A stretch of DNA of 64,000 nucleotides from Selaginella moellendorffii (GCF_000143415.4 NW_003314289.1:1135680-1199679); one strand, 5' to 3'. Counted from the stretch's first letter, positions 1-41,094 are shown. Notes: generated from the letters alone by a model not told the origin. Program-made: numbers and translations.

Positions 1-835
1 CTCGGACTCGGACTCGGACTCGGACTCGGACTCGGACTCGGACTCGGACTCGGACTCGGACTCGGACTCGGACTCGGACTCGGACTCGGACTCGGACTCG
101 GGCTCGGGCTCGGGCTCGGGCTCGGTCTCGGCCTCGGCCTCGGTCTCGTTCTCGGCCTCGGTCTCGGCCTCGGCCTCGGCCTCGGTCTCGTTCTCGGTCC
201 CGATCTCGGTCTCGGTCTCGGTCTTGGTCTCGGTCTCGATCCCGGTCTCGGTCTCGACTTCGGACTCCATCTCGGACTCCATCTCGGACTCCATCTCGGA
301 CTCCATCTCGGGTCCATCTCGGACTCCATCTCGGGTCCATCTCGGACTCCATTTCGGGTCCATCTCGGACTCCATCTCGGACTCCATTTCGGGTCCATCT
401 CGGGTCCACCTCGGACTCCATCTCGGACTCCATCTTGGACTCCATCTCGGGTCCATCTCGGACTCCACTTCGGACTCCAACTCGGGTCCATCTCGGACTC
501 CACTTCGGACTCCAACTCGGGTCCATCTCGGACTCCACTTCGGACTCCAACTCGAGTCCATCTCAGACTTCACTTCGGACTCCAACTCGAGTCCATCTCA
601 GACACTTCCACGTGTCATGTGTTGGTCCTTTTGGGTCCCTTTTTGGAGCCTCGCTTTTTGCTCGCTTCGTGCTCGTTCCTTGAGCACTTCGTTGGGAGTT
701 CCACTCCCGCTCTTGACTTTTCAAGTCGGAGCTTTTGGTCCAAACGTGTTACGCTCGTTTGGCTCTCGCTTCAGCCACTACCACGTGGCACCCTTTCCGG
801 CTTCACTTTGGGGCCTAGGGATTTTGTGTCTCACA
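1..835 (-). repeat. Family A 3' LTR (partial) containing (CTCGGA)n and CTCGGACTCCAT/CTCGGGTCCAT tandem arrays
   Basis: Near-identical to about 5945-6741 and ends in ...GTGTCTCACA next to the PPT. Confidence 0.9.
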
Positions 836-3800
836 ACTCCACCACCCATAGACGAAGTTCGATGTCCTCATCGAACGGTAAACCATTTTGTAAAGTAACA
901 CTCGCATGTGTTACCATTTCCATCCTTGGCACCTAGCCAATATTTGTCAATGGTTTGACATTGAAGGCTCACCATGCCTTTTGCATATGCCTCAATGGTT
1001 TGACACCAAAGGCTCACCATGCCTTACCTATCCTCTAAGGAGGGTAGTCTCTCCAACTTAGAGACTGATTGGACCACATGTAGTGGTTCTCTCCTTTTAT
1101 TGGTTTAGTTCTCGCTAAACCTTTTAGAGACCCTTCTCTAAGTCAATCCCACTACTCCTTCTCGAGTAATCTCAATTTCCATCTATTGAATGTTTGCACC
1201 TTGGAACTTTTACTCTTTTGACTTTTGGAAGTCAATTTCCTAGGCGTCTCCAACACCTTGCCTTGCACAGATTGTGCAACTCCACTTCCCTATCCTAGGA
1301 AGTTCATTACTTGAGGGCACCATCATCCTCTCTTCTATTTCGTGCCACCTTGGGCACTAAGTTCCATTTATCACACTTTGTGCTAGGGTTGTCCATCGCC
1401 CTATCATTTGGCTACCTTACCGCTCCCTCCCTTGGAGCTTCCACTTTTGCCAAATCGGAGCAATTCGGAATCCATCCTTGGAAACACACTTCCTTTCCCG
1501 CAATTTGTTAGCGTCCAACACATTAGTGTTCCTTGCCTAACTTTGTCACTTGGATTCCTTCCAAGGAATTCCACGGCCCTATCTTGGCCACTCATCTTTT
1601 GCTCTTATCCATTGATTGTTGCACCAAGCAACATCGAATCTCTACCTCCCTTCTTGAGGTGTTCTTTTGATTCCATAGCAAAGGCTCTGCTTTGCCAAGA
1701 CTAGGGTGTTCACCCCTAGTAAGTCTCTTTTAGCATCTTCTGCTGTGGGCTCTATCCTCGGCCCAACTTTGTGACCCTCTCATGGGTCTCTTTAGAGACT
1801 ACTTTCCTTGGACACACTATACCATCGCAATGACATAGCTCATTTCCCTAAGGTGTTTTTCCCACTTGGTCACCTTGACCAAGCCACACCATCATCAATA
1901 GTTCAAATCAACACTTTGAACTAGGAACCTTATTCCTTAACCCAAACAAGGACCTTGTCCTTATTTAGCCACAAGATCACCTAGTGATCTCACCTCGGCA
2001 CCTTAACAGGTTTGCCAATAGGTACTAGGTCTTCCAGACCTTTAACTTTGTTAACTACGACCCCGGGGGCATCCCTCACACTTGGCGGTGCGCCCAAGCC
2101 AGCCCTTCCGGCTAAGGGTCCATAGCAACTGAGATTAGGTGTCCCCATCTCACTCACCACGTCCTTGGTGCCACTTGCACCAAAGCGTTCAAGTTAGATA
2201 TGCCGAGCTTTCACACTAAGCAATCTAACCGTGCATCACGACTCCGAGGCATCCCTCGTTTGGCGGTGTGCCCAAACCAGTCTCCCCACTGAGAGTCTAT
2301 GACCACCGAAATATGAGTGTCCTCATATTCCAAACCATCACCACGCCCTAGTGATTTGGGACTCGAACCCAAGCACTAGAGGGTCGGGACTCGAACCCAA
2401 CCTCCGTATATGCATCTACGGACGGCATCACACAAGATGCCTGGCGTGACTCCCCACGCCGGTGCACCAACTTATATTTAAAGCGTGCTATAGATCACAG
2501 CTTAGGAACCTAGTTCCTCCCCACTGCCAAGTCCTCTCACTTGACAAGCCTGTGATCATGCATGGACTCCTCCATGCTTGGCCCCATGGCCCACCCCTTT
2601 TTGAAGTTATCACCTTCAACTAGGGTATTTGTTCCCTTGACTTGCCAATCTCGCTTTGGCAAGTCCTCCGACCACTGTAACATGGTTCCTGCACAAGCGT
2701 GAAAGCCTTTGATCATCGACTTTCGTTCAAAGCCTTCTCTTTGAACACTCGGGAACTACTTCCCTAACCTTGATAGCCTTGCCTCATGGCAAGCTTCAAG
2801 ACCACGCTTCTGCTGCGCCACTCTGATTTCGCGCATTCCTTGAACCATTTATGCTTGGCCTTTCTAGGTACTACGCTACCTAGAATCCTCTTTGGGAACC
2901 TTGAAGGAACTCTGTCCCTTAGCTTGCTAAGGCCCCCCCTTTTTGCAAGCTTTCCAATTACCATATAGTCTAACATGGACAATTCCATATTTTAGACTCT
3001 CCATGGCATCACGGTTGCTAGCAGCAACACCCTCGAGCCCCCACTTGATTCTCCACTCCCAGCTAGCATAACCAACCTTGGTTATGCCCTTCAATTTCTA
3101 TGGTTCGGTTCTATCCCCTTACTTTTTGCTTTTGGCTTCACACCTTTCCTTCGGTCATTCTCCTCCAGACCAGGAGGATAGCCTTTGCACTTTCTATCAT
3201 GCCTTAGCAAGTATTCTTAGGGATGAACCTACCCGATAGCCTAGGGAGTGGTTCCTCAATCCAGGTATGCTCACCCTATAATCCCACACATCGGGATTAT
3301 GTTGTTGCTTACGGGCCTTTGCATGCCCATCGCTAGCTTTGCCAAAATTCCATTTTTTGGCTTTGTCCAATTCGAGTAGACAGTCTTCTCCTGTTTCGCC
3401 ACCTTGGACATTTGGATAGCACCTACTATCCATCGTTCGCTAGGGACTTAGTCCCTTGGGCCTTATCTACTGCCCTCACGACATCAAACACCACCTCTTG
3501 GTGTTCTAGAGTGTTCGGGTGTCCCAATGACAGCTTCCTTGACAATGAGTATTTCCTTTTATGACATTGACTTATTATATCGCAACATAAGCAACTCATC
3601 CCCCATAAGGGTATATCCAACTTTCCTATGCCATTAAGAAGTCTTGGGTAGCTACCTTCTACCCGTTTAACCAATTATTTGGCACCTCTTGCTTAGTTGC
3701 CTCGTAGTTGTCAAGTCCTATAACTCATTGCTGGTGCTTCCACACCTCCATCATTATCTGGGTCACCACACTCCAACTGCATGCTCTGCAGCTTAGGTTA

Positions 3801-4934
3801 TGTCATTCCCATTTCTATTGGGATTCCTTTGGCAAGGGGTTTTCATGAACCCACCAACATAGCCTCAAGGTATCACACCTTGGCACATTTGGTGTCTCCA
3901 CACTATCGGCTCCACGAGCCTACCTCTATGACACTTCTTCTTTGTGTCTAAGTCTTTGCCAAGACCAATACCACGCTTTCTCATGCCAACCATCCGTTAG
4001 CACTGCATCATAGAGGTCACACACAACTTTGTGTCAAAGTTGTTTTCTTTTTGGAAACACCTTTCCCACGACTTTAGCATGGCACATTTTGCCATCGATG
4101 AGATACCCTTTGCTCTCATCCTTGGATCCTATGATCCCCCCCCATCCTTTGTGGGGTACAACACACCTCAGTCCAAATGCTTCCATCGGTCCTTTTAGGA
4201 CCATCCCTTGACTTTACTTGAGTCATCCAGCAGTTTTGGACTTGGTTAATCCACAGACCCGTAAGGTCCTACTTGTGAGGCACTAGCTCACTGGAATACA
4301 CTTCTTGCATTCCTGTCCTACTCAAAAGGACTATTTTCACAAGTGTTACTCTGACACTTGATTTTGTTCTCTGGGGGCAACCTTTGCCCCTTAGGACTAC
4401 TTGTCCATGCGATGAGAATACCAACTCATCTCTAAGTACACCCCCCAACTCCTTGGGTTGTTCCAGCATTTATTAAAGGTAGCCCTGGCTACCATTTCAA
4501 GGACTTGAGTCCTCTTCCGTATTTGACCTCCCACGGTCATTACCTCTTGTCTCACATTCATGAGCACCAACCTCAACTATATGAGGATAATCTTGTGACT
4601 CCTTTATTGTTTTGGAGTCTCTATCTTTCCCGTGATCCCAACTTTAGTTGTTTACCACAACAACCTTAGCCAATTTGCTGAGACAAATGCTCATCCAGAT
4701 CACATCCTCAACTCAATGAGGAAAACCTTGCACTGTTCCCAAGATCCCAAAGTCGTTCCATTATTGGCCCTTTTCTATCCACCACCTCGTCTACAAGTTC
4801 ACACATGAACTGTAATGGAGAGTCATGTCTTCCCGACTTGCTACTCCTCAAGGATAGGCCCACTCCTCGGACCTTCCGATGCCAACACTAGTGGTGATAT
4901 ACTTGAGCACCAATAAAAGTCGGACTAAGGAACA

Positions 4935-4946
4935 GCTCCGATACCA
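4935..4946 (-). other. Primer binding site complementary to initiator tRNA-Met
   Basis: TGGTATCGGAGC lies 3 nt after the LTR end ...CTTACA. The canonical form is TGGTATCAGAGC. Confidence 0.85.
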
Positions 4947-4949
4947 AAT

Positions 4950-6741
4950 TGTAAGCGACTAATTTTCCCATTCTACTTTAGTCGCTTAACCACACCTCCG
5001 ACCACTTGGAGGAGTCTCATTCACAACCTCCATAAGTCCCATTCAGGACTTGGGACTTGTTAGTCCCAAGAATGGCATCCATGCCACTCAACACTTGCAC
5101 CTGGTCCAAGTGCTCCACGTGTCCGGTCCCAAGACCGACACCCAAAGGTGCCACTGAAATATCGGCCCGTTACGCTAAGGCCATGCCCATTCACCTTTGC
5201 CGCACTAGTGGTCCAATACCACTTGCATCACAATCCCGTCTCTCCAAAACTGGGCTATCCGTCCACGAGTGGTCATCCTAGATCCACTCCTTAGCATCCT
5301 TAGGATGCCCACAGACATGGGGAATAGCCTTCCCCAATATCCCTCTGTCAGTCCCCACTAAGTCCCTTTCTGCCCCTGGCCGTGTTTGCCAACACTGCCA
5401 CTGGATCGAGACCCACAGGCCCGACCACTAAGTCCCACGGTCCTCTGGGACTTCCTCACCACACGACTGTGTCCTTGGTCACTACCCCAGAGGACTGCTC
5501 CTCTTCCTTTCCACAGTCTGGGCCTTTGGGACAACATTTCGGAACACCGTGGCCTTACGCGAGCCACCTGGGTACTCTCCTCGCCTTCTGCCCTTGGGTG
5601 CTCTAGCCATGGGCTTAGAGCGGGTTCCGTTGAGCCACACCAGGTATCCAAGTAGGTAGTGCCACCCACACTTGGACTGGGAGCATCGGCCAGTCGATCT
5701 CCCGGGGGAACTAGAGCCGGCTCTTGAACACTTCACCAAGCTACCTCGCTTGTCGGTCTGTGTTCACTCTAGTCTTGGACTTCCCAGTGGGCAGCTCATC
5801 ACCCAACACTGGGTCCGGCCTTCCTGGGCCAAACTGGCCTTTCCTGGCCAAACTGGCTCCACTGCAGTCCTCCCCCTACTATACTTTTGGAGCTCACCAA
5901 ACCCCCCAGGGTCTGGGAGACGAACGCTTTGGGCTTTCACCCTCTCGGACTCAAACTCGGACTCGGACTCGGACTCGGACTCGGACTCGGACTCGGACTC
6001 GGGCTCGGGCTCGGGCTCGGGCTCGGTCTCGGCCTCGGCCTCGGTCTCGTTCTCGGCCTCGGCCTCGGTCTCGTTCTCGGTCCCGATCTCGGTCTCGGTC
6101 TTGGTCTCGGTCTCGGTCTCGGTCCCGGTCTCGGTCTCGACTTCGGACTCCATCTCGGACTCCATCTCGGACTCCATCTCGGGTCCATCTCGGACTCCAT
6201 CTCGGGTCCATCTCGGACTCCATCTCGGACTCCATTTCGGGTCCATCTCGGGTCCACCTCGGACTCCATCTCGGACTCCATCTTGGACTCCATTTCGGGT
6301 CCATCTCGGGTCCACCTCGGACTCCATCTCGGACTCCATCTTGGACTCCATCTTGGGTCCATCTCGGACTCCACTTTGGACTCCAACTCGGGTCCATCTC
6401 GGACTCCACTTCGGACTCCAACTCGGGTCCATCTCGGACTCCACTTCGGACTCTAACTCGAGTCCATCTCAGACTTCACTTCGGACTCCAACTCGAGTCC
6501 ATCTCAGACACTTCCACGTGTCATGTGTTGGTCCTTTTGGGTCCCTTTTTGGAGCCTCGCTTTTTGCTCGCTTCGTGCTCGTTCCTTGAGCACTTCGTTG
6601 GGAGTTCCACTCCCGCTCTTGACTTTTCAAGTCGGAGCTTTTGGTCCAAACGTGTTACGCTCGTTTGGCTCTCGCTTCAGCCACTACCACGTGGCACCCT
6701 TTCCGGCTCCACTTTGGGGCCTAGGGATTTTGTGTCTCACA
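4950..6741 (-). repeat. Family A 5' LTR (about 1.79 kb)
   Basis: TG...CA termini; matches 47595-49226 and 51335-53017. Confidence 0.9.
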
Positions 6742-7405
6742 GTCTAGTGCTATTTCGGCATACCGGTGGCCTAACGCAAGGACATGGGTACTCCACCAGC
6801 TAGTATAGAATGGAACTTGGGCTTAGACCCAAGCCAGACGTAGAACAAAGACAAAGATAGACACATAAGTAAGAGCTAGACTATGCTTCAGGTTGGTCGG
6901 CCATGCCCAACCTACCCACTATCCCTACTATACATTTGGAACCCCCCACAACCCCCCCCCCCCCTAAGGAACAATCTTTACATTCCATAAATATGCTAAA
7001 TGAGCAAATTTGGACACTTTCCATAAATAATATTTGGGACCGGAATAAGACTAACACAAAGGGCATGATAGCAAGGGTGTTTGGCAGACACGGTAAGGTA
7101 TCATTTAGCGAATATTGAGGGACCAATCTTAATATAATGAGGGTTCTTGATACTAGCAAGTGCAAACCAATAACACAAGTTTCTCAAACCAGGCCAAGTA
7201 TGCTTAGCAAGAAACACATAGGGTTCCTACCTTATGTTTATCCAATTTAAGTCTATGTTCATTGACCAGTTTGTCAACTAGCTCAAGTGGGAATTAATAA
7301 CGGGTCTAGCAATACTGACCTCTTACCATCATGGCAGTAAGGAAAGAGTGTCCATAAGGACTGGCTGACAAGTATCTTTCGATACTCGAAGTCACATTCG
7401 CGACA
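6742..7405 (-). repeat. Family B LTR fragment, interrupted by the family A element
   Basis: Ends ...GATACTCGAAGTCACATTCGCGACA, the reverse complement of the LTR start TGTCGCAAATGTG at 30570. Homologous to about 10010-10978 and 30570-31360. Confidence 0.7.
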
Positions 7406-13944: not shown

Positions 13945-13968
13945 AAGCTCTATTTCGTTAAAGTGGGA
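13945..13968 (+). repeat. Left terminal inverted repeat
   Basis: AAGCTCTATTTCGTTAAAGTGGGA. Confidence 0.9.
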
Positions 13969-14386
13969 ATTGTCATTATCCCACTTGTAAAATAAGGTTT
14001 CCAAACCTTTATATAGTATATAAATATAACAAAATTCAATTGCATTGAGGCACATGCCATTTTATTTTAAACAAGGAAATGTCTACTCAATCACTTCTCC
14101 TCCCCCTGCCACTGCTTCACCTCTCTCTTCTCCTTGTCATCGTCGTCCAATTTCTTTCCATCCTTTTAATATTGGCTCAGTTGCTCCGAGTCTAGGTGGA
14201 GCCCAAGTCCCCATTCAATCTTTACTTTCCCCTTATTAATAAAACAACTTCGCAGACTTCCAATAACATGCTGTAACACTTCTAGTATAATGCAAATCCT
14301 CTCAAAGAATTGTCTTTTAATATTAATACAATGGCATGGAACCCCATGCCATAATAAGTTACATTTTTAAATAAATACATGCCATC

Positions 14387-15249
14387 TCAGACTATTATTT
14401 TTTGCCTCCAACGCCTATACAATAATCTTGGAATTTCATCACTCTCCACACTATCAGGATTTAAACCTAATAGTAATGCCATCTCTTCTCTAATACGTCC
14501 ACGCTCATGTTCAGTGGTCGAAGAACCCATCCGGTTGAGCAGATTATGGAGATGCGGATAGTGCTTGGCTAGACAATATACATGCCATAAATGATGACTG
14601 GTGTCTGTCCGATCAAATGGCTTCTGATATACCGTTCCATCTGCCATTTGGTTGATTTCTGCAGCCACCTCCTGGACTGGCCGGTTCTCTATCACCATCG
14701 CTTCAAGCCGTTTTGCAAGGTCCCCCAGAACATACGATTTCTTCTCCCTAGTTTCCATACTGCAAGAGATGGGGTGCACTGCATATGTGTGCGTGTTCGC
14801 TGCAGTTTTAATCGGCGAGTCATCGATGATGAGGATTTCACTTGACCTAGCAGTCCGGTTCATCACTACAGCCTTTGCCTTGACGAAGATGGGCTTGCTA
14901 CCCCTCACATGGACCATAGTCAAGCAATCCTCCTGCGTTAGGAGAAAGTCAAATGGTAATATTACTCGCGTCTGATCGTGCATCATCTGTAGCAACGTTA
15001 ATGCATTGTGGCGCATCATGGATGTCCAAACTCCCAATTGCAAATTGAACCCGGCCCTCTGTTTTAAGTGTTGCATGGTCATTATTAGATCCCGCAGTTT
15101 CTCCCGTGTGATTAATGTGAATCTGTCTCTTTTGACCAACTTGCGACCGCAGGCTTTGGAGGGTGCAGTGACATTCGAGGACGAGCCACGCTCATGGGAG
15201 AAAAGGACACCGTTCAGATCAAAAACGATACAGTACTTTCGCCGTGACT
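14387..15249 (-). CDS. Terminal exon encoding an FCP1-homology (NIF/SCP) HAD phosphatase-like domain
   Basis: Motif I DLNGVL (DxDxT variant), motif II WTS, motif III K in PIFVK, motif IV IIDDSP. Open for about 290 codons. Confidence 0.75.
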
Positions 15250-18200
15250 CTGAAATGAAATGCGTCAGCATAAAAAATGGTACAAGTCAATTTTACCATC
15301 TACAATATTAGCGAATGGTGCTCCCGATGGTCGTTTAGAGGGTTTTGGTCGAGGAAACGTGAAGGGCGGAAATACTCTCCTCTGCAATGTGGGGTCAATC
15401 GCATCCGATGGCGTGTGGGCACATGCCATTTCAGCTGTAGACTCTGGTACAACTGGCTCAACAGTGGCATGGGGTGGTTCCGATGGCGTTTGATCACACG
15501 CCATTTCAGCTGGTGCCTCCGTTGGCAAAGTGGACATGACCGAATAGGCAGCAGGGGCGGTGTAGGGAGGTTCCAACGGCGCGTAGTCAGACGATTGGGC
15601 ACACGTTGGAAATGAGGATACGACCGGCTCGGTGGCTAGGGCGGCCTCATGCGGGTCCAATGGCGCCTGGTCACCGTCAGTTGGATACGTGGACAAGATT
15701 GACTCAGTGGTATGGGCAGCATCAAGTGGAGCGTGGTCAACTTGCTTGGCGTTGATATGGATAGTAGCCTCCACCAGCTCTGATGACTCTTGCAGGCAAG
15801 TAGAGTCCACTGGCGGATCCATATGCATGTCCAAATATCTCCCTTCGATTGAGATGGTATCCTCCCGTGCTACTAAAAACAAACTCATTAGCACATTGAA
15901 TCGACTATACTGTATTTACCATCAACTGCTATTGAGGAACTAGGACCGATATCACTTGGGCGCACTGCTGATTCTGAAGGATTGGACATACGTTTCGACC
16001 CTTACTTGGCACTATCCTTCCTCGACACTAAAGGCTAGAGTTTGTATCTTAATTCAACTGAATAATCTCTACTTACCATTTCTTCTGCGACCTACATGGA
16101 CAATGTTAGAAATGGTAAAAGGTTAGGAATGGATGTACTATTATTTACCTGATGGTTTGTCTTGTATGACCTTCCTCCGCTGCTCTTTGGCCACCTTAGG
16201 CTGGCCATCGTCGTCATCATCGTCATCGTCGTTATTGTGATCGTCACCATTGTGAGGACCATCCAAGTCCTCTTCGTCCTCCTCTTCTTCATCCTCCTCT
16301 TCTTCGTCCTCTTCTTCTTTGTCCTCCTCTTCGTCCTTCTGCTCTTCCTGCTCATTATCTTTCTCTGGCTCCTCATCCCCCTCTTGCATTTCTTCCATAG
16401 GCTACTCAGGCTGGATGGCTTGTTTTTCCAGGACCATCTTGGGAAAATCATCTGGCCGAGTCTCCATCTCAAAATACAAGACATCCATAGCCTGTTTTAG
16501 TGCGTGACCTAGGACCGTATCCTCACCCGACTGTCTTAACATGGTTTCTGCACGTTCTTGCACCCTTCGAAGACGACGAGATGAGAAAAACGTGGCCCTG
16601 ACTTGAAAAGCATCCCTCATCCATTGTACCTCTCCATTGAGATTGGGGAAGGGGAGTCCGCCATAGGAATCTGAGTCAGAAGGTGGTGACTGGCTCCTTT
16701 CACTCAGCCCTTGATCTGCAATGAATGGCATGAGCACACACGCCATAACCGCGAGGCATTACCTATCATCTTTTCGTTGCCCTTCTTCCTTTTCGAATCA
16801 AACGCCTCTGATCCCGACGACTGTCCAACATGCTTTCGCTTTTTATGACCACTGTCAGTTTGAGCTTGGCTGGTGCTTGCCTGTTTTGCCTTTGAAGAAG
16901 TGTCTCCTGCAAGGAATGGCATGAGACCACACGCCATTGCAAATATAATTTGTACCTCCTTTTTTCCTATTGCTTGTCTGTTTGTCCTTCTTCGACGCGC
17001 CACCAGTGCGCTTTTCAGTCCTCGTGTTTGAATATTCACAACGATCTATAATCAAAATGGTGTGAGGCCTCACGTGACCTTACCTTGTGCAGGTTGTGAC
17101 CTCGGCCTAACATCAGTAGCTGTTAACGCCGTTTCAGCATCTGGGGGTGGCCACGCTCTTGCATACAGAGCTTGTGAGATAACATTTAAACTTAAAGTGC
17201 GTACTCACCAGGTTCGTAGAGAAGATACTGTTTTTCTTTGGCAACTGTAATTATATGCTCCATTGAAGTCACCTCTTCAATGGAGTTTGTCACCGCAACA
17301 CACGGGACACCCTTGAGTAGTGCGGCTCGAAAGAATAGTCCGCCGCAGTTGTACTCGACAACGCATTTGCCCTTGGAGTCACCCGCTATTGCGTTGAAGA
17401 CCCAGCTGAGCATTTCCCATGCTGCACCTAGAGCTTTCTTTGGATTCGAAAGCTCCATAGCCGTCTTCAGTTCCTCAGGCACGGGTAAATTGACCTCCCT
17501 CAGATCAATTCGATCGGCTTTGTTGAACGAAGCTGGGAAGTCACTCTAGTCCCACTCTGCTGCAGGACCAATAACAAGGGCGAGTGTGAAGATGCGGATA
17601 TTCGTCGGTATTTTCTTCTTAGCCATTATCCCATGGATCTCCCGCATCTCCTTGCCTTTCAACCGAGCCTTCACCTCGTTCAAGGCCTTCCAGAACTTGT
17701 GATAGGATTCGGAGTCGTAGATCATATAGTGGACTGAAGATTCCACCTCCGCAAGTCCCACCATTAAGTCAATGATGGAGCTGACTTCGTCTGCATGAGT
17801 GATCTCCTCGTTTGTGAAGTCCATCACACAAAAGATGTTCTTGACCTGCTCATCTCCGCGGGAAACGATGCTCCTCCACCTTTGATCCTCATCCGAATTC
17901 ACGTATACCCGGTAAGGTTCTCGATAGGCCTCTGCTGCGGGGTCGAGCTGTTTCTGAAGCCGGCGGTCGACATCCCTCTTAATGAAATTTGGATACTGAT
18001 CCAACTTCTCAGCTTTACTTTTCGTGGCATCCCGCAGCAGATCGATGAACTTGGGGGCCCCCTTCACGTACTCGTCGATGTCTTCATTTGACAAGTCCAG
18101 CTCTTCCATCATCTCTTGCGTGGTGTCGATGCTCACCCTCGCCACGGCCACTTGCTCGAAGATCCAATCCTTCAATAGCGCACGAGCTCTCAGAGTCGTG

Positions 18201-19992
18201 CACAAGTCCTCGTATGTCACAATATGGCCGGGAGTCATTTTGGTCTTGTTGAAGACTACCTCACCACGTAGAAGAGCATTAGCCACTGTCAGAAGGTCGT
18301 CGTCGTCTAGAGACCGCGAGAAACGCAAGGCGTTGAGCTTCAAATCATTGGGCTTCCGGCCGTCCTCCACACCCATTGAGTTTAGCAACTCCCCGTCATG
18401 GTACCTCCTCAGCACATCTACCCATTTGTCAAAAACAACTTTTGTTGCGAGTAGAATGTTATGGATGCTGAGTGTGTCATTGACCCCCAGTGTTTTCGAG
18501 AGAAGACTCAAGAATTCCTGCAATGGAAATGGCGTGAGGCCACATGCTATGCCACATGCAACGAGGCTTACCTACCAGGCGCTAGTTGCTAGTGCACGTC
18601 CTTGTCCTGGTTTTTGTGGCTTCTTCAGTTGAACCCAGAGCTTCCGTGTTCGTGCCAATGTCTCGTGCAGACCCGATTTGTAGCACGTTTCTTGCTTGAC
18701 ATTCTGCGCGTGGGAGATGTATATGATAGATCGGAGGGGCGAGTTGCCTTTTATCAGGCGGACAACTCTTGTCTTGAAGACTTTCTTCACCTCCTCGCCC
18801 ACCATAATACCCACAACTATCTGTTGCATCGCCAAGCTAGAATGCTGCCCGGAGACGGCATAGAACCGGATGTTCTGATCGTCCAAAACCTTCCTATTGA
18901 TCAAGTCTGAAAACCTCGTCTCGCCCTTCATTGTTCGGTAGTAGGGGATCACGTCTGCGATGTCGGGTGTTACTGGACTTGCCAGCATCTTCTGCTTCAG
19001 TTTCTCCACCCACTCATCAGATACTAGCCTGTGGTTGTATTTGCTTTGGATCTCGATACGGCTCACGTCGATTGTATATACTTTGTTGGAATAGTAACAA
19101 GTACTATTATCTGCGACGATTTTTGTTGCCTCTTCTTGCTCTTTCTGCTCTTTGCGGCTCTTCTTTTTGGTGGGTGTAGTGTTCGAACCCGAGGCAATGG
19201 CATCACCGAGTAGCTTCTTTTTTGGAGCAGCAGAGTCGGACGTCGGCTTGAGCTTGACCACCCTTTTCTGCTTCGGGGTAGTATCCAGATCGACCCCTTT
19301 CCCCTTCGCTTCGCAAACTGGAGGCACTCTCAACGGCTCAATGTTGGAATATAGTTTTTGAACATCGCCGTAGGTGAGGTCCGTGGATTCCATGTGATCT
19401 TCATAGACCCGCAGCGTCTTTGAAATTGTGGGCCTCCTGGACAACCTCTCCCTAGCTCCCTCTAGGAATTCCTCATAGCCGCTGCCCCCCTCCGGGAAGC
19501 CGCTAGAATGTGCAAGGTGGATCTTGAAGGCGGACGCTGTCTCTACCACAAGTGCCAGTCCATATTCTTGCATGGAACTGCATGGAGTGTCTGTCACTTG
19601 GATGAGGATCCCCATGCATTCTTTTCTCCCACCATCTGTGTTGTACAGCATCAGATCCTTGCCTTCCATCCCGAAAGTCCAACTGGTGAGCTCCTCCCCC
19701 TTCTCTGCATCCACATTGACAGTGGCTGGAAGAAGAACGCAATTCCTCGCCTGTTCAGAAATGCACAACAATTAGAGCTGACAGATGAAAAGCTAGCAGC
19801 TAGAAATAACGTGAGGCCACACGCCATTCACCACTGCATCAGATGTCTTGAGGCTGCATCCTAAGATGGCGTGAGGCTACACGCCATCTGTAACCGGACT
19901 GCACTCGAGAGCCCAATCGGTGCATGCCAATGTTGCTACTGAATGGCATGTGGCCTCATGCCATTTTCTACTTGGTCTAAAAGACTTACCAT
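14387..19992 (-). pseudogene. Transposon cargo gene of about 1,600 aa: ParB/Srx-like domain, degenerate amino-MTase-like fold, acidic low-complexity region, FCP1/SCP (NIF) HAD-like domain; carries premature stops
   Basis: Frame-consistent GT-AG model: ATG 19992-19990 | 19750-18572 | 18517-17209 | 17170-17084 | 17045-16956 | 16906-16763 | 16715-16148 | about 16029-15920 | about 15873-15297 | 15249-14387. Motifs: NHRLVSDEWVEKLKQKM...FYAVSGQHSSLA (ParB-like); SKGKCVVEYNCGGLFFRAALLKGVPCVAV (MTase-like); CIVFDLNGVLF...VWTS...ILIIDDSPIK (FCP1-like HAD). In-frame stops at 18574, 17548, 16404 and 16004. Confidence 0.7.
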
Positions 19993-21589
19993 TTGAAGCC
20001 GAATGGAGGCCGTGACAATCGAGGCCGGACTCGCTGGCGAATGTGCACTGTGTGTGTAGCGGATCGTAGCAGCAAGGCTACTCTGCCACTTACAGTTGGA
20101 GAGTGGTGCTGAAATCTCCCGGGACGCCAAGTGGGCTGCGTGTGGGTGGCGGAGTGGGCGGCGGAGTTGGCGGCGAAGTTACAAACTGGGTGTGTCTTGA
20201 AGTGGACGCCGATGCACACGAGCGCGATGCGAGCGCGAGTATGATGCAAGCGCGAGTGGACGCCGATGCACACGAGAAACCTGTAGAGAAGTGAGCGTGA
20301 TCGCGAGTGGGAGCGCGATGCGAGCGGGAGCGCGAGTGTGATGCGAGCGCGAGCGCGAGTGTGCGAGCGCGAGTACAAAGCAAAATGCAAAACCTAACCT
20401 CACACGCGCGAAATGTCACAACGGTTGGTAATCCCACCACGTCATCATTCCTCGGACTTGGGCGCCACCATTAATTTCTGGATTGCCGCGCGCATGCAAG
20501 CACGCAAAATCCAAAAGAAATCCGCAACGTCATCATTCCTCAGACTGCATGCACGCGAAATCCAAAAGAAAGATCATGATTGGGATATCATTTAATACCC
20601 TCGCTATATTTATACCATGCATGATTGGATATTCCAAAGCATCTTGTATTTCCAAAAATGGCAGATGTTCAGCTAAATAAAGAAATTCTATCTGTTTCTA
20701 TTTTTCTCTCAAATCAATATTATAGCGTGTGGGCTCATGCAATTTTGAACCAAAGAAACCCAAAAAACGTTAGACCCAAAATATTTTGAAAAAACCCAAA
20801 AAACCCTAATCATTTTAAACCCAAAAATCCAGGCGTCCTGTGGCGTTATTCCTTGAATGGCGTGTGGGCGCATGCCATTTTCAGGGCCAAATGCTGAATG
20901 GAGAAAAATTCCCTTTCAGTGCAAATGCTGCAAGAGGCAGATGCCGAGCACAAAGGACTGTAACTACCTCACATGACACAGATAAACTTTTCTTTATTTG
21001 GCAAAGATAAACTTTATAGCGTGTGGGCTCATGCAATTTTGAACCCAAAAAATGCACCAAAAAATTCTCGGCGTCATCTGGCGTTATCTCTTGAATGGCG
21101 TGGGGCCGCATGCCATTTTCAGGGGCACATAGGAGTATATTCCTAGGATATTCTGACACGTGCGAGATTTTTTTGAGTTTTCTGGAGATCCAACCGTTAG
21201 ATCGCAACTAGATTTTACAGAATGGTATACAATGTCTTTCTTGATGACCCTGCAAAGAAGCATCTCGATCGGACACTACATGAGACCACACGAGCCTTAC
21301 AATGTTTCAGGGGCATTTGCCATAGATCCGACCGTTATTTTGCTCCAAGATTTTATAGTTTAGTGTGCATTGACCTTTCCATCGAAACTGCAAAGGGACA
21401 TCACAATCAGATGCGGGATCACAAGAAACTAACTTCACTAACTCTGGTTTCACCAATATCTACGTAAGGAGTTATGAAATGAAAGGACCCTCTCTATTGA
21501 AATGTGTTTATGGTCCTAGGGGCATTGTGACATATCAAAGGATTTTGCATCAAGTTCTGTATTTGCATGTTTATCAAGCTACTGAATTG

Positions 21590-21616
21590 CTAAACCCTAA
21601 ACCCTAAACCCTAAAC
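21590..21616 (+). promoter_or_regulatory. Plant telomeric repeat run (CCCTAAA x3, telo-box) in the divergent intergenic region of the transposon
   Basis: CTAAACCCTAAACCCTAAACCCTAAAC. Confidence 0.6.
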
Positions 21617-22946
21617 ATGTGGCAAATGCTGCGTGAAGAAAGATGCCCTTTCTGGGCAAATGCTGTAAGAGGCAGATGCCGAGCAGATGTATCTCAGGCT
21701 AGCGAAGGGGACAAACGAAAGCTAGCTATAAACATGACGGGATGCAAATAGATTACTAGGCTGGTCCTACGAAAATCAAAAACCATAATTGAAAACATTG
21801 AAAATGCAAAAAGAAAGGTTTATAATATTTTTGAATTTTAAGCAACCAAAGGAATGTAAGTAGGGCATGTGTTTGTAAGTTTAAAAATGCCTCAACCACT
21901 TAAATTCCCAAGTAAATAAAGCTGTTTCTATTTTTGGTACAGATAAACTTTATAGCGTGTGGGCTCATGCAATTTTGAACCCAAAAATGCACCAAAAAAT
22001 GCTCGACTAGCATTATTCTTTGAATGGCGTGTGGCCTTATGTCGAGCATTATTCTTTGAATGGCGTGTGGCCTTATATTGCCATAAATGGACGTACACAC
22101 ATAGCATAATTATTCCTTTACACGGCGAATAATCTTGGCGCGGATCGCTGACATGGCATGGAAAAGTTCAAATCACTGACATGGCACAGCTGGATCGAGG
22201 CAAGGACATGATGTGACAAAGTTCAACCTCCGACAGCAAAGTCTAGAAGCTACTCAGTTTGAAATTTGTCAGAGGAGTCATAAGATCTGGTTTGTCAGAG
22301 GATTTGATGTGACGTTCAAGCGTGTGTTATTTTTGAATTCTCGAACTCATTCCTAGATCTATCATTTTTGTGCGCCGTGTTCTTGGTTCCGCTGAGCGCA
22401 GTGAGCGCTGCTTGTGTAAGCGGCGTTGTGGGCTGTGGTTTATGCGTCTACGAGCGGTTGCGGCATTGCGAGCGCCATTGCGAGCGGCAGTTTATGCGAG
22501 TGGCAGTTTGTGCGAGCGGCGCTACGAGCAGTTGCGGTGTTGCGAGCAGCGCTACGAGTAGTTGCGGTGTTGCGAGCGGCACTGTCTTTGGTGTGGCTAC
22601 CGCTTCCTCTTGATATTCGGCACTTGTGCTTCCTGGTATGTTCACCATAGAATGGCTTAGGACCACATTTAGAAATGGCATGAGGCCACATGCCATCTTG
22701 GGCCCTTGCAATTTCATGGCTAGCGTATTGTCATGTATGTTTTTACTTGCCTGCAGCTGTGTGTATATCAAGATGGCATGAGGCCTCATGCCAATTTTGT
22801 GAATGCGAAATTTCACGTGGGTGTCAATAGCATGTTTGAATAATGGCATGTGGCCTCATGCTATTGAGGTTGTTTGGTATGTTATGATTTAGGCCATTCT
22901 CCAATCATTTTTTGTATGGTCTTAACTTCTTTTCTGCACTTTCAGA

Positions 22947-25900
22947 ATGGCCTTCAGGGTTGGGGAAAAGGTTTACATTTTGAATGGTGGGAAGAGAGTT
23001 GCAAAAGGGACCCTTGTGTCTATGGATCGGAACTTTGTTATACACTGTCAAAGGCTTGGGGAAGGCAATGCTGCTGTATCAGTAGAGACTGTCTTCGATG
23101 GGAATGTGGTCGCTATTGAACGAGGAGAGATGGTCGTCGGGGTAAATGTTGTTGTTGCCTTGAAAAATCTTCAGAAGAAAGCAGATGTTGGGGATAGCGC
23201 AAGTGTGACGCATGTTCCCTCCGTGGATCTTAAGAACCGTGCTACATGGATTCAGGCAAAGGTGTTTCTAAACAACCCCGAGGGGGAGGTGGTAGCTGAG
23301 GGCTTAGCCACAGTTGTCGATCCAAGAGATGCAGTTGCTAATCAAGAATTGGGCTGGGATGATATTGGAGTTGCGATTTTAGAGGTTGTTGACACAGAAG
23401 AAAACAGTCTGACTATTGGAAGCATTGTGCGGTGGAAATTGAGGCACTTAGTGTTTGAGAATGTGAAGGATTCACAATCAAACACCACTACAACTGATGA
23501 CAGAACATCTCTTCATGGGAAAAGAAAGTACACTTTCCTAAAGCGCAGCCAAAGGGATCTGAGCAACGAACCGAAAAGGCAGAAAATGGCGATGGAGGTT
23601 CGAATGGTCTCGACAGTTGCTTGTTGCAAGAGGAGGTGCTGTCAACATGCTGATTGGGATGCTATTGAAGAGGAGAGAGCAAGATATAAGACATTGTCCT
23701 GGAAGGTAGCTCGCAATTTTGTGTATGAGGCATTACGGTCATCTATTGATGCTTCAGAACATCAGGTGGGGGGCATGGTCTTCTAGAGGGGTTTGGTCTG
23801 CATGAAGGCATGGAGAATCATTTATGGAGTCCCTCGAACCACATTCTACAGAATCAAAACTGAGTTCGAGGAACAAAGGGTTCAACAGGCAGTCCATGAG
23901 AACAACGGTACGCACAAAACCAGGGGTCATGTTGTATATGGAGAGGCAATCTTCAAGAGGTTTGTCGAGACATGTAGCGAGCAGCAACCACATAAAACCC
24001 GCCTCTTGGAAGATGGAACACGAGACACCCAACGAGTTCTCCCTTCCATGTATACCAAGGGGGCCATATTGGAAGATGTGAATCGGGAACTCCAGAGTAA
24101 TGGCTACAGGAAGCTGAGCCAATCTAGATTTAGTAGATTGTGGAGCAACAGGTTCAGGGATGTGAGTATAGGAAAGTACTCCAGCTTTTCAAAGTGTGAC
24201 GAGTGCACTGCTATCAAAATGGCTTTGTCGAAGAATTCTTGCAGCGCTCAAGAGCGAGAGACGTTGGTTAGAAAGCGGCTCGACCACAACATCGAGCAGA
24301 GAAGCTGCAGGACTGCATATTATCATAACAGGATTCTCTCCATGGAGAGACCTGACTCTTACCTCTGCATCATCCACGACAAAATGGACCAGAAAAAGAC
24401 GTGCTTACCTCGACTCAATCCTGCCCCCAAGGCAATCTCTTCATCCATGCAGCTGCCTGTGTCTCTGTTTGGCATAATCGCTCATGGGCATGGTGCCCAG
24501 AACTATGGGAACTTCTTTGTACCTCTATGGGGTGGCGGGGGTGCAAACATGATGATTGCGTCCCTAGCAAAACACTTAAGGTCTCTGCAAAGTGCGCAGA
24601 CTGAGCTGAACGGCCAACCCTTGCATAAGGCCCTTGTCGATCGAACCCCATACAGGGTTCAGCTGGAGGAGGAGCAAAGGCTTGCAGTATCGCGTGGGGC
24701 CCCATGCCATCCCAGTGAATATGTTGGCCGTCAGATTGTAGGGTTATCACGTGAGGCCTCATGCCATTCCGACGAGGCTGGTCGCCCGGTGAATGCACAG
24801 CCTCATCCAAACGAAGCAGAATCTCAAGGAAGTTCTTGCGGCCGATGTGGCCTTCCACCCCATCTTCTGCTCCAAACAGACAATGCTGGCAGTGAGAACA
24901 AAAACATGTACGTCTTCGCGTACTTGGCGATGCTTGTTGCCAAAGGCATATTTGAAACGGTTACACTTGGCTTTCTCATGGTTGGGCACACTCATGAAGA
25001 CGTCGATGCCATGTTCAGTCACCTGGCAGAGTCCCTCCGGCGATCCAATGTCCTCACCCTCCCACAACTCTACGATGAATTCCAAAATTGCATCAAAGGC
25101 ATTGTTGAAGCTGCACTTCTGACAGAGGTTCCAGACTTTAAGGGGTTTGTAAGAGGCTACATCAGGGACGGATCCGAAACGCTGATTGGCCACTCCAAGC
25201 CTCTTCAGTTTCATTTCAACATGTGTGACGGTGCTCCAGTGATGAGGTACAAGATGAGAGAATGGGACACAGTGTGGCTGCCAGTGGACGGCATTGAACT
25301 CTTCAAGAGAGATCCCATAACTGGGGAACCTATGATTCCTCAGGGTTCCCCACGGCCGATGCACCCGGATGGACTCAAAGACCAGGAAAGTATAGTGGCC
25401 GGGATTAGACAGCATATTGCCTTCTGGAAGAGGGGGTTGGTGTTTGGTGGAGAATCCTATTTTCAGAGGTGCAAGCCTTTGCTCGAATACTGGGAGAAGA
25501 TTATATCTACTATCCAAAATGGGCCGGTTGTATATGAAGAATTGGAAGAGTCCTTTTGGCCAAAACCTAGAGCACCAGATAGTAGCGGAACAATGTCCTC
25601 TGGAAATGCAGTGACAGATAACAATGTTGAGGATCACTATTGTGGGCCGAGGAACAAGAAGCCGGATTCAACATTCAATCCAGTACAGGTTTGCAAAGGA
25701 ATGGTCGTGCTTGTCAGACCCAGTAATAAAAAACAAATGATATGGGTGGGGCGCTGCATCACTGATGCAGAGGAGGACGCGGAAACTAACTCCTTCAATG
25801 TAACTGTGGAGTGGTTCAAGCCAAGTTCCGGATATACGAACGATTGCCTAGAAAAGAGATGGGTGCTGAATCCAAGGGATCCCAGCATGAGCATATCGGT

Positions 25901-26088
25901 GGATAATGTTGTGCATGGTTGGATGCGGAAGCAGAGTGCCACCATCACCTTGCCAGACCATGCAAGAGATGCAGCAAGAGCATTCATAACCCGGGTTCAA
26001 GGTGAGATTCATGAATATTCCTTTACTAAGTTTCTAATGTATTTTATTTCAAGGTGAACAATCCGAATCTGAATCAGAGGAGGCGTGA
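22947..26088 (+). CDS. Sola-like DDD transposase (about 1,030 aa) with two N-terminal En/Spm Tnp1-like repeats and a C-terminal Tudor/BAH-like segment; one in-frame TAG at 23784-23786
   Basis: ORFs 22947-23786 and 23793-26057 are in the same frame. Motifs: CCKRRCC, VCMKAWRIIYGV, FSKCDEC, IIHDKMDQKK, LQTDNAGSENKN, FLMVGHTHEDVDAMFS. A terminal intron 26002-26053 gives the last exon GEQSESESEEA* ending at 26088. Confidence 0.85.
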
Positions 26089-26726
26089 TGGCATGTGGCC
26101 TTACGCTATTCCTAGGTGAGATGATACAAATAACAAGTATAAATTCTTAGTTGTTCTAGCAAATCTTACTTAAAGTTCAAGGTGAACAAGCCGAATATGA
26201 ATTCATCGGATTGTTATAACAAATTGCGAGGTGATGGCATGAGGCGATACGCCATTTGAGAGTGGTAACCATTCCTATATGAGGTGAGTGAAGTATTTAT
26301 TAGAAATACCTCATTCAATTGTGCACTTCTAAGTCTTGGTCCACTTAGTACTGTTTGCATGTTTTTATTTTAATTCTTTCTCTAAAATGTTATTTAGCAT
26401 GTGGCTTCATGCCATTGCTCTCCACAATCATGCATTGAATTTCTATCCTTGCATAATACTTCTCCATATATATAGCATGTGCGCACATGTGATATGGTTC
26501 ATTAGGCCTGATATAGTGTGTGAGGTAAAACAAAGATGATGTGACATATGCATTTACCAATCACACGTGCATAAATCTAATAATATGGCGTGTGGCCCAT
26601 ATTAATGGCACATAAACCCATATTGTGGGCTTACGTGCTTTATGTACCATCATTCCCTTGCAGCGAGTGTGTTGGTTTCCTTTTATAACACAACGAACTC
26701 CATATTTTAGGGTGAAGAGCGTTCTC

Positions 26727-26984
26727 ATGGCAAGCACAAAATCTGTAAGTGAGGCAGAAAAGGAGACGGAGAAGGAGATAGGTGAAGATGTAGAATATAT
26801 AAGTCTTCCAAACTCCCCGTACTATACTCCAGGTGATCATTTTTCTGAACAAACGGCAACATTAACAACTATCGAGAACGCCCCAGTAACGTCAGAGATA
26901 ACAATCCAAAGCAAAACAACTGACCCGGAGAAGGATGATAGTACCGCTGAGAGTACCAAAAAGGAGGTGTCCACTAGCGCTTAG
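26727..26984 (+). CDS. Short acidic Ser/Thr-rich ORF (85 aa) inside the transposon; possibly a downstream exon
   Basis: MASTKSVSEAEKETEKEIGEDVEYISLPNSPYYTP... has protein-like composition and is preceded by a TTTTAG acceptor at 26710. Confidence 0.3.
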   Translation: MASTKSVSEAEKETEKEIGEDVEYISLPNSPYYTPGDHFSEQTATLTTIENAPVTSEITIQSKTTDPEKDDSTAESTKKEVSTSA

Positions 26985-27620
26985 GCTTATAATGGCGTGT
27001 GCCCTCATGCCATTTACTTGATCACCAAATACCTTTTTCCCTTTGCACAAGTATATCTTAATACCGGTCTGAGAAATAGAATGGCATGTGCCCTCAGGCC
27101 TTTTACTAAATCACCTTTGAAAGAAATGCAAGCCTCTATGTCGTAAAAAAAAGGTACTAGAGAAATTCCTTAATAATATGAATGTTATTTAGTTTCATGA
27201 AAATACACTAAGGGTCAAATGAGTTAAATGACTTCTCCAGACTAGCAATGCCTCTTGCTACACCTTCACAATTAGATTCGTTAGAAAAAGATAACATTGA
27301 ATAATATCTAAATGTTCTCACCATTAAGTTATATATCTGGCTAATAGGAATGACGTTCATCTTGGAAAGCTCACCACACGCTCAATGAACAAACAAATAG
27401 TGTGTGCGCGCATGCCATCGTTCTTCTTTAGCTTCAGATTCGGCTTGTTCACCTTGACAATGAGATTTATTATACAACCAGATGGACTCAGTCTGGACAT
27501 AAAGTCACCGCACTAGTCACCATGCCCCAGATATGTCTAGCCCCTGGACAAAAAACATATAATTTCACGTCATTTTCAAATACTTGAAAATTTGTACCTA
27601 GTCCCATTTTACTGAATAAA

Positions 27621-27644
27621 TCCCACTTTAACGAAATAGAGCAT
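27621..27644 (-). repeat. Right terminal inverted repeat
   Basis: TCCCACTTTAACGAAATAGAGCAT; reverse complement ATGCTCTATTTCGTTAAAGTGGGA. Confidence 0.9.
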
Positions 27645-34049: not shown

Positions 34050-36147
34050 ATGCTGCTGGAAGTGGGATCGCTGCGCAGCGCGGGCAATGGGAGCTACTGC
34101 CTGGCCACATTTCCCGGCCGGAGTGCCAAGAACAGGCAATCGCGCGTAACGATTGTATGCGCCCGGGGCAAGGCGATTGATGGCAGCAGCAGCAGCAGCG
34201 GCACCAAGAGATTCCCTTTGGGTGGCACCAGAAAGAAGATCAAAGACGAGGAAGGCAGCGATGGCGAGCAGGAATCATCGAATGGCGCTCTGAATTTCGG
34301 GACGCAGCTCTTAAATCTCGCCTCCAGGAGGGACAAATCTTCTCCCCCGGCTAAGAGTGGAACCAAGAAAGAGCTCGCTTTGTCACTGGGTCTTCTTCGC
34401 CGAGCTCCCGACGCTAAGACAGTGTTTGTGGCTGGAGCAACTGGTCAGATCGGCGCTAGAGTCTCGCAGCAGCTACTCCGGAGTGGATTCACAGTCCGTG
34501 GAGGTGTCCGCGATCTCTACTTCGCCCAGCAGCTCGCGGAGTTCGCTACGCAGTATGGGGTGAGTGGAAAGATAGTTTGGTTTATATCCGTTGGAGGAGA
34601 TTTCTCACAGTGTTCTCCGGCGCGCAGGTGATCAGCAGGGACGAAGCACGGAAGATCAACGCAGTGGAATTCGATTTCAAGGACGTAGAGTCGATAGCAA
34701 AGGCTATAGGGAACGCAGGGAAGGTGGTGGTGACGGTCGGTCCCTCGGAGGATGGTCCTCGGGGGAAAGTCTCGGCAAAGGATGCCCTCCAAGTTCTAGA
34801 GGCGGCCAGTGTAGCACAGGTGGGGCATGTTGTGGTGGTGGCCGAGGCTGGCGGTGTGTCGAGCAGCGGCGGCGGTCCGCTGGCCTTGATCACGGATTTC
34901 TTCAGTAAGTTGTTCAGCAAGGGTGCAGAAGTCTCGACTGATTCGTTGCTCGATAGTGTTGTGGACACGGAGCTGAGGTTTACGTTTGTCAAGGTGAGCT
35001 CCACCGAGGGTGTGGATGATTTCAGCCCCGACGGAGAGAATGTAGTGCTGCTGTCTGAAGGGACGTATAACCAAGGCACGGGAAAGGTACCGATCGAAAC
35101 AGCTTGCTCCTTTTCTCTTCTTACGCATTGGAGTTTCTTGTGTTCCAGGTATCGAAGTCTCAACTCGCGTCTGTTGTAGCGGGGATCTTTGCAAACATTG
35201 CCATAGCAGAGAACAAGGTTAGTTCCCGTTCCCATGCACGTAATACGTAAAAGGGGAGTTCGTTACAAAGTTTGGCTTTGCGTTTTAGGTGGTCGAGGTT
35301 GCCACTGTTGAACCTGGAGCATCCAAGCCCATTGAAGAACTACTAAGGTGCTCAAGTTATCTTTTCCTTCCTCTGTATGATTCTTCTAACCCGCGCCCGT
35401 GCCAGTGCTATACCAGAGGATGGAAGACGAGCTGCATTGGCGGAGGCGCGAGACAAAGCGGAGGCCGAAGAGCGGCAGAGACAGCTTCGGGAGCAGGCAG
35501 AGGCCGAAGCCAAGAAAGCGCTGGAAGAAGCGAAGGATGCCGCTGCTCTCGCCAACGAGCTGGAGGAAGAGGCAAAGGAGCTGGCTAAACAGGAAGCACA
35601 GGCGGTTGCCAACGCTCAAAAAGCCAAAGACAAAGCCAAGGCCGCGGCAGCGTCGCTGGAAGCTCTGGGGGCAAAGATGAAGGATATTGGAGCTTCCATC
35701 AGCGAGACATCGCAGAATGGCTTCGGTGGTTTCTTCAAGCGAGGCACAGTGGCTGGTCCTCCGGCCGAGGAAGAAGACGATTTGGAGAGCAGCGGGACAT
35801 CCCAGAATGGCTTCGGTGGTTTCTTCAAGAGAGGCACAGTGGCTGCCAAGAAAGAAGAAGAGAGTCAGGAGGAGGAAGAAGAGAAGCCAAAGTTTGGTCT
35901 GGGAAACTTGTTTAAGAGGAGCAAGGACACAGCATCATCAGCCGAGACTCCATCGCCAGCAAAGAAAGTTCCTTTTTCCAAAACGAAGACCCCAAGTCCT
36001 CCAAAGAGACGATCGCCACCACCGCCACCACCGCCAGCGATGAGGACGAAGGCTCCGAGAGAGACGAGCAAGGCTCAAAGCTCGGCAGGAAAGAAGAGTG
36101 TGCTGGGAGGATTGTTCAAGCAAGACACGATATATATCGACGAGTAA
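34050..36147 (+). CDS. PTAC16: Plastid transcriptionally active 16 (NAD(P)-binding Rossmann domain with coiled-coil C-terminus)
   Basis: Transit-peptide-like N-terminus, KTVFVAGATGQIGARV, ESIAKAIGNAGKVVVTVG, and C-terminal GGLFKQDTIYIDE. GT-AG introns at about 34560-34627, 35087-35148, 35218-35288 and 35349-35405. Confidence 0.9.
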
Positions 36148-36247
36148 CACGATAGTATATTGTACAAACCATGATATCGTCTGTAAATCAATCAAAAAGA
36201 GATATTTTGCGTTGTATGCTTTTGTGTGGAGGAAGTTGCTTGCTGCT

Positions 36248-38068: not shown

Positions 38069-38440
38069 TCCATTATATGTTTTTGATTGATTGATTGAAT
38101 TGATTGACAACAACAACGAACGACGATGTAAAATTATGCATGTTCCCCTTCCCCTCCTCCTATAATAATAAGTATTGTTCATACAAGCCCCCGCCCATCC
38201 CCGTGTGATCTTATATAAAACTTGGTACAAATACTGTTACTTGGACCTCCTCGTTTTTTTTTGGGATGTTTTTTCCTTCCATAGCTTCGAATGTAGCAAC
38301 TTTTGTGTGTCAGATGTGCGGCCTGTGACTGATTATACATGCCCGACTCCAAAGTGAAAGAGGAAAGAAAGACTAGAGCTGAGTGAGAGCGTTCGTAATG
38401 TACCTCGCGCGCGAAGTAGCAAAGTCCCCGAGCTTTGCTC

Positions 38441-40698: not shown

Positions 40699-41094
40699 GG
40701 CGCCGCTGGCGCGATCGACGATCCCGCTGCTGGCCGGCCAAGAATCCCGCTTCCCTATCTAGGATCGATCGATCGATCGATCTATCGCGGCGAGGGAAAT
40801 AAAAAAGGGGGATGGCCTAAATTGGCCACATTAACCCAAACCCGGAGCTGTCCGTGCCGTTTGAGCCATCGCCCTAAACCTTAAACCTCCCGCCCGTACG
40901 GCACGTTTGTGTGGTGGCGGTCGTGTACGGTCGTCGTTTTGAATGCCGGGGGGCGTTTTAGAGAGAAACTTCTAGCCGCCTAGATCCGGCGCCAACCAGC
41001 CTACGGGTGGGACCCACGTGGCGCCGCCGCCATGGGCATAGACACGTGGCGGTCATGTTTCTCTTTCTCTCACGCCATCAGGAACCCTAAATTT

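Follow-up and report, generated by a model that had tools for sequence, protein, structure and literature searches.

A palindromic word of a Selaginella transposon that probably doubles as a branch point in tiny introns

Introduction

In a 64,000-nt stretch of the Selaginella moellendorffii genome (GCF_000143415.4, NW_003314289.1:1135680-1199679; hereafter the window), a 13.7-kb transposon bearing terminal inverted repeats (TIRs) at 13947-27642 carries a transposase gene on the plus strand and a divergent cargo gene on the minus strand. A 22-bp palindrome (consensus ATGGCRTGWGGCCWCAYGCCAT) recurs through this element and lies in four predicted cargo introns of 38-54 nt. Why should such a word occupy introns of this size, and what would read it? 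An initial annotation of the window proposed that the introns are parking places for binding sites, or that an RNA hairpin formed by the palindrome regulates splicing. Judging from the sequence, we give about an even chance (probability near 0.5) to the reading that the palindrome is a docking site for a dimeric protein encoded by the element, most likely the cargo protein, which is predicted to have a ParB-like fold, and that the right half of the palindrome would serve as the branch point in four introns.

Distribution of the palindrome

The score matrix was derived from the same sites that were later counted. It detected 30 copies scoring at least 9 bits inside the element; the remaining 50 kb gave 2 weak ones, and each of 20 shuffled versions of the element 0-2 copies. 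Non-coding sequence holds 26 of the 30, with seven in cargo introns, three in the leader intron of the transposase gene and 16 between or beyond the genes. The other four are in coding sequence, meaning that placement at no protein cost, as first proposed, is not a strict rule. The copies outside the cargo introns are located as follows:

14039-14352, no strand assigned: two palindromes, past the cargo stop codon towards the left end (matrix scan)
15408-15504, minus: two palindromes in a low-complexity coding exon of the cargo gene (matrix scan and frame)
20722-22081, no strand assigned: seven palindromes between the divergent genes (matrix scan)
22675-22864, plus: three palindromes in the predicted transposase leader intron, at least 80 nt from the acceptor
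24689-24767, plus: two in-frame palindromes in a transposase loop that measures 54-125 amino acids in 26 homologs
26088-27418, no strand assigned: seven palindromes in the element's 3' part (matrix scan)

Without the gene-internal copies, a 6.4-kb stretch would be left with no site, compared with a largest actual gap of 1.8 kb.

Exon-intron model of the cargo gene

All junctions of the cargo gene are predictions from the sequence. The model consists of the following features:

14387-19992, minus: predicted cargo gene, 11 exons and 10 introns, about 1,637 codons in a joined frame with four copy-specific stops
19751-19989, minus: predicted intron 1, 239 nt; palindromes at 19943, 19866 and 19806; separate CTAAT at -22
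18518-18571, minus: predicted phase-0 intron, 54 nt; palindrome 18529-18550; A of CTCAC at -18
17141-17208, minus: predicted intron, 68 nt, without a palindrome; overlooked by the initial annotation and required by the frame
17046-17083, minus: predicted intron, 38 nt (alternatively the 3' end of one of 163 nt); palindrome 17057-17078; A of CTCAC at -18
16907-16955, minus: predicted intron, 49 nt; palindrome 16916-16937; A of CTCAT at -16
16716-16762, minus: predicted intron, 47 nt; palindrome 16725-16746; A of CTCAT at -16
16148-16092, 16076-16028, 15919-15873 (or 15870) and 15296-15250, minus: four short predicted introns without a palindrome, three of them with CTRAY at -15 or -16

The five introns initially annotated (the 239-nt intron and the four short ones with a palindrome) all have GT at the start and AG at the end when read on the minus strand, and the palindromes have the stated positions: three in intron 1 and one in each short intron, with 11, 11, 9 and 9 nt between the end of the palindrome and the exon. 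The description of the tiny introns as largely built from the palindrome holds for these four, where it makes up 41-58% of the length, but only four of the nine short introns contain it. Removing these five introns does not by itself join the reading frames, as had been supposed, since 12 stops remain down to 16499; the frame is obtained once the 68-nt intron 17208-17141, which has no palindrome, and four further downstream introns without it are taken out as well. It is then open from 19992 to 14387 except for stops at 18574, 17548, 16404 and 16004. In contigs of both run X2 and run X3 each of the four reads as a sense codon, and the loss of every stop in sister copies provides independent support for the exon model. 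Indels in the exons relative to the window copy are of 12 and 15 nt in the X2/X3 contigs and of 9 nt in X1. Of 56 places counted at which the window and the X1 contigs differ, 37 are A>G or T>C, an excess that fits decay of the window copy by cytosine deamination, which we infer.

The frame does not fix the donor of the 38-nt intron. A single 163-nt intron (17208-17046) is also in frame; it drops a 57-nt exon and retains the same palindrome-bearing acceptor. At 17061, within this palindrome, the X3 letter is nearer the consensus than that of the window copy.

The position of the 18571 intron was compared with 14 distant homologs. Nine of these end shortly past W/F-x-V at the aligned position (counted by eye in a weak alignment), as expected when translation reads into a GT donor. 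Two others end earlier and three continue, and the two continuing homologs that were aligned have a 19-residue gap near the 18 intron codons (next exon, E 0.023). The intron position appears to be common to homologs only 20-29% identical and to be older than the present word.

The size of the cargo introns was judged against two host genes of the window, about 100 nt apart:

34050-36148, plus: NAD(P)-binding protein
36248-38070, plus: a protein that we take to be fibrillin-like

Joining across all 14 hand-picked introns gave stop-free frames of 612 and 392 codons. These introns are 48-100 nt long (median about 60), which makes tiny introns the host norm; among the cargo introns only that of 38 nt is clearly below the host range seen.

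On the cargo gene, RNA reads give depth almost only over an acidic repeat and over 38 nt of the predicted 5' leader (20058-20096), and contigs of X1 and X12, which are only guessed to be RNA and may be DNA, cross the intron-1 acceptor unspliced. The 38-nt stretch is matched by 111-237 reads per RNA run, and these reads extend into other sequence on both sides, with flanking letters that we take to resemble the 3' part of large-subunit ribosomal RNA (rRNA). It had no match in Rfam or in E. coli genomes, and is possibly a captured rRNA fragment.

Overlap with the branch point

In the four short introns with a palindrome, the sole YTNAY within -15 to -20 is supplied by the palindrome, with its A at -18, -18, -16 and -16. 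Among the five motif-free short introns, three have CTRAY at -15, -16 and -16, a fourth has its sole YTNAY at -35, and the fifth has none. Orientation points the same way as position: the T-containing half that reads YTNAY is on the sense strand in 4/4 motif introns, whereas the other 26 sites give it in 18 of their 52 strand readings (hand count), a probability of about 0.015 if the cases are independent. In the long introns, the palindromes lie apart from a separate branch-point word. The suggestion that CTCAY lies where a branch point is expected is supported on both counts, and the palindrome is likely to double as the branch point in the tiny introns. The simplest reading is one of packing, in which a 22-bp site would fit into a 38-54-nt intron only by overlapping the branch point.

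Predicted cargo protein

Two predicted domains were recognised in the cargo protein:

18575-19150, minus: ParB/Srx-fold domain with the motif G-Q-H-S-x-x-A (predicted model, Foldseek, 14 homologs)
14390-15249, minus: last exon, NIF/FCP1-like domain, that is, C-terminal domain (CTD)-phosphatase-like (PF03031, E 2e-6)

The first domain was predicted from a 17-row alignment with a predicted local distance difference test (pLDDT) score of 78. The count of 14 homologs leaves aside a 15th match, the yeast repeat protein P0122, which was dropped as spurious. The top Foldseek matches of the model were Noc and ParB (best E 2e-4), and VIA gave PadC (Z 10.1, root-mean-square deviation 2.9, 99 aligned) and KorB (Z 9.4). 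An Atlas feature search placed the domain near the DUF3723 (score 0.95) and ParB_N clusters; it had no Pfam match and no PDB sequence match. In the NIF/FCP1-like domain, D-L-N is found where the D-x-D motif would stand. Homolog searches gave no full-length cargo homolog, and no cargo locus was confirmed among viral or metagenome contigs. The end of the third exon (17210-17545, minus) was likened by eye to what we took to be the S-adenosylmethionine-binding motif of DNA methyltransferases; PDB, PHROGs and Pfam gave no support, and the likeness was dropped.

Transposase and related loci

The transposase gene was delimited as follows:

22947-26000, plus: weak Transposase_23-like N-terminus and DUF7869 core, with an in-frame stop at 23784

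Its core matches DUF7869 in Pfam (E 6e-42), and Pfam reported no Mutator-like element (MULE) family in the protein. The N-terminal match to Transposase_23 (E 0.012) is below the curated cut-off. The search gave 120 homologs; identity is about 40% for the closest unrelated ones, and several come from the liverwort Riccia. No transposase locus was found in viral contigs, and prokaryote assemblies gave 7 weak ones. One weak relative (L084 10001-10568, E 2e-9) sits on a 732-kb contig from a bacterial assembly.

Ten related loci had 500 nt or more upstream of the transposase, and at seven of them a palindrome family beat all 40 shuffles; nine of the 19 near-full-length loci had less upstream sequence and were left out of this test. 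The seven positive loci fall in five of seven sequence families, and the word differs for each family. In a wider scan of all 80 loci with 3 shuffles each, most were not clear of the shuffles. Examples of these upstream regions are:

L060 1-905, L001 525-1850, L022 1-900 and L015 50-690: different 16-20-bp palindromes, 7-13 copies, before related transposases

The relatives' words are tandem or near-tandem in L023, L015 and L060. Four of the seven contain no YTNAY, and in L001, L002 and L060 the last copy is at least 60 nt from the likely acceptor (by eye). Dyad symmetry seems to be what the transposon family keeps.

Alternative explanations

Could the palindrome instead act as RNA? If it formed a hairpin masking the branch-point A, splicing of the cargo transcript would be held back. 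Two findings agree with this: the motif introns fold at -7.5 to -16.2 kcal/mol, whereas the four downstream introns without the motif have -0.7 to -3.0, and the branch-point A of two introns is a paired base of an 8-bp stem. However, the motif-free 68-nt intron also reaches -16.2 kcal/mol, the sense-strand 22-mer folds weakly in the 18571 (-5.3) and 17083 (-3.1) introns, the 18571 copy folding better on the antisense strand, and 26 of the 30 copies are away from any branch point. Compensatory changes occurred in 0 of 240 arm-pair cells (30 copies x 8 arm pairs), and the four double changes in the arms all break pairing. At the variable R6/Y17 pair, 12 of 30 copies have a Watson-Crick combination, where independent halves would give about 13.6 (hand calculation), and the pair behaves as two independent CpG-decay positions. 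Given no compensatory change, two of four intron hairpins weak or mismatched, and most copies away from splice sites, the proposed autoregulation by a hairpin was not borne out, and we consider it improbable. Because sequence has been kept over pairing, and because the relatives have different palindromes, the evidence favours docking on double-stranded DNA rather than an RNA hairpin.

A binding role would not be needed if the word had spread by local duplication or conversion of a block comprising branch point and acceptor, with some introns born or homogenised in this way. Three motif introns do end in a similar pyrimidine run followed by TTGCAG, the 16955 and 16762 introns have a common 31-nt 3' block of 90% identity, TTT(T)CAG follows several of the copies outside introns, and local duplications are present between the two genes. 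Such spread is nevertheless rather unlikely as the explanation: the 22-mer is conserved although the flanks of most copies are unrelated, the left arm is retained although splicing does not need it, in-frame copies persist in coding loops, the position of the 18571 intron appears to predate the word, and the relatives repeat the pattern with other words. A less unlikely alternative, serious though still tentative, is that the palindrome is read by the transposase and not by the cargo protein. The transposase would bind it through its Transposase_23-like N-terminus for self-regulation or assembly of a transposition complex, and overlap with the branch point would then be the same packing effect. 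There is precedent in TnpA of En/Spm, which uses subterminal repeats. The palindrome clusters directly upstream of related transposases are consistent with this, as are the weak Transposase_23 match and the surroundings of the 80 transposase loci, none of which (80/80, including L009 with 10 kb upstream) has a ParB-like exon and several of which carry palindromes. On the other hand, the copies are spread over the whole element and not massed at its ends, the Transposase_23 match is under the curated cut-off, and most related contigs are short or decayed, which makes the absence of cargo there weak evidence.

Proposed explanation

If the palindrome is a docking site for an element-encoded dimer, the word would accumulate wherever it is tolerated, that is, between genes, at the ends, in introns and in two flexible protein loops. 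An intron of 38-54 nt would accept the 22-bp site only when it overlaps a splice signal, and only orientations placing CTCAY at -16 to -18 would persist. The cargo protein might load at the palindromes and, by way of its phosphatase-like domain, act on RNA polymerase II or on chromatin nearby. This action could keep the element expressed, in the manner of VANC for VANDAL and of VirB at virS. The idea of introns as parking places survives in part: the word is confined to the element, its sequence is kept over pairing, and relatives have clusters of their own, but the introns were not built for the palindrome, since host introns are as small, five short introns are motif-free and the 18571 position is seemingly old.

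Several observations weigh against this explanation. In the query and all 14 homologs, the arginine patch of ParB is replaced by G-Q-H-S/T-x-x-A, in an assumed register against ParB. Both patch arginines are required for binding of cytidine triphosphate (CTP) by VirB, according to passages of PMC10770331, and their absence makes CTP clamp chemistry doubtful here. The region downstream of the domain is predicted to be helical, in a model of the longer protein that is of unusable quality (pLDDT 33), and no DNA-recognition domain was identified. The absence of a ParB-like exon near the 80 transposase loci means that the transposase could be the binder. Palindrome-like families also occur in three of four control blocks of the window, where they come from another element's tandem repeats, and even spacing of the site clusters along the element was not significant (P 0.08-0.22). 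The four orientation cases are not independent, since the 16955 and 16762 introns have the common 3' block. Finally, three raw RNA runs (about 12/100 of each) contained no predicted-intron joint, with almost no depth on the cargo gene.

Comparison with known systems

VANDAL elements have a Mutator-like transposase. The transposase here is of the DUF7869 type, and for this reason the element is not a member of the VANDAL/VANC system; by analogy, it is likely to work in the same way. Passages of PMC5735166 describe how, in Arabidopsis, the accessory protein VANC binds family-specific motifs in introns and other non-coding parts of VANDAL; the Discussion states the link from binding to loss of silencing as open. 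Both systems are DNA transposons with an accessory gene and a family-specific short motif in intronic, intergenic and terminal non-coding parts. Unlike the 9-bp asymmetric word described there for VANDAL, the word here is a 22-bp palindrome (PMC5735166). VANDAL motifs form tandem arrays; the copies in this element are mostly dispersed singles with few local duplications, and the words of L023, L015 and L060 are tandem or near-tandem. The likely branch-point overlap and the predicted ParB-fold and phosphatase-like cargo also set the element apart.

As with ParB/parS and VirB/virS, one mobile element combines a predicted ParB/Srx fold with several palindromic sites, and passages of PMC10770331 describe VirB as a ParB-like antisilencer that loads at palindromes, slides and counters silencing over more than 1 kb. 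The cargo gene differs in being eukaryotic and intron-containing, in having H-S in place of the arginine patch, and in that no ParA partner was seen. The nearest named family of the cargo domain in the Atlas search, DUF3723, is itself a transposon cargo: it is conserved in fungal Starships, with a function given as not known in passages of PMC9156397. Starships are fungal tyrosine-recombinase elements, in contrast to the present one, the cargo has no Pfam DUF3723 match, and the passages cited from that paper mention neither ParB (0 occurrences) nor palindromic sites.

The motifs in the catalytic region of the transposase look, as we take them, Sola2-like; no relative with a solved structure was found. 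Sola-type DDD transposons resemble the element in their short TIRs, their size range and their presence in a moss (passages of PMC10741241), but their 4-bp target-site duplication is absent at this one copy. Most members of the CMCT group (EnSpm/Mirage/Chapaev/Transib) have 5'-CA..TG-3' termini, according to passages of PMC12730594. The termini here are GCTC..GAGC. Introner elements also place a repeated word beside the branch point of several introns, and such introns are near-identical copies of a mobile unit. The motif introns, by contrast, differ in length and in their 5' parts, have no terminal repeats and have only the 22-mer and a short 3' block in common, and most copies of the word are non-intronic. 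Because a defining feature failed for each group, the element was assigned to none of ParB clamps, Sola, CMCT and introners.

The element and its surroundings

The ends of the element were placed as follows:

13947-13971, plus: left TIR, 25 nt, 96% complementary to 27618-27642
27618-27642, minus: right TIR, 25 nt (repeat search)

The flanks of this single copy (TAAA / ATAT) contain no target-site duplication, and an Rfam search of the element gave no match. Assemblies of runs X3-X7, each of only 2-3 million letters, contain about 0.68 of the element's words, which suggests a young, high-copy family. On the 3' side of the transposase, short blocks at 26049-26201 and 27396-27457 recur, one inverted near the right end beside a palindrome, and a 122-codon frame (26616-26984) has no Pfam match.

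Elsewhere in the window, 1-7000 and 44000-64000 hold copies resembling long terminal repeat retrotransposons (protease, RNase H, integrase), whose 12-, 35- and 46-nt tandem repeats contain a palindrome-like word of their own. An intronless ATG1-like kinase (41505-43097, plus; Pkinase and weak MIT domains) among intron-rich neighbours is possibly a retrocopy, and a Pumilio-repeat protein with a CCCH zinc finger is encoded at 38500-40700 (minus).

Implications

The literature covered, which took in few subscription journals and no supplements, contained no plant ParB-fold transposon cargo with palindromic sites and no binding site doubling as a branch point. A wider proposal is that one family of land-plant DNA transposons adopted a ParB/parS-like system, in which a protein joining a ParB fold to a CTD-phosphatase-like domain would load at the family's palindrome, spread and keep the element active, with sites packed into the 38-54-nt introns doubling as branch points; this is unlikely. 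If the docking-site explanation is true, sequence-specific anti-silencing would have arisen again in a second, unrelated group of transposons, which would suggest a load-and-spread mechanism. A DNA site that is also an intron branch point would then be one sequence under two codes, read as DNA by a protein and as RNA by the spliceosome.

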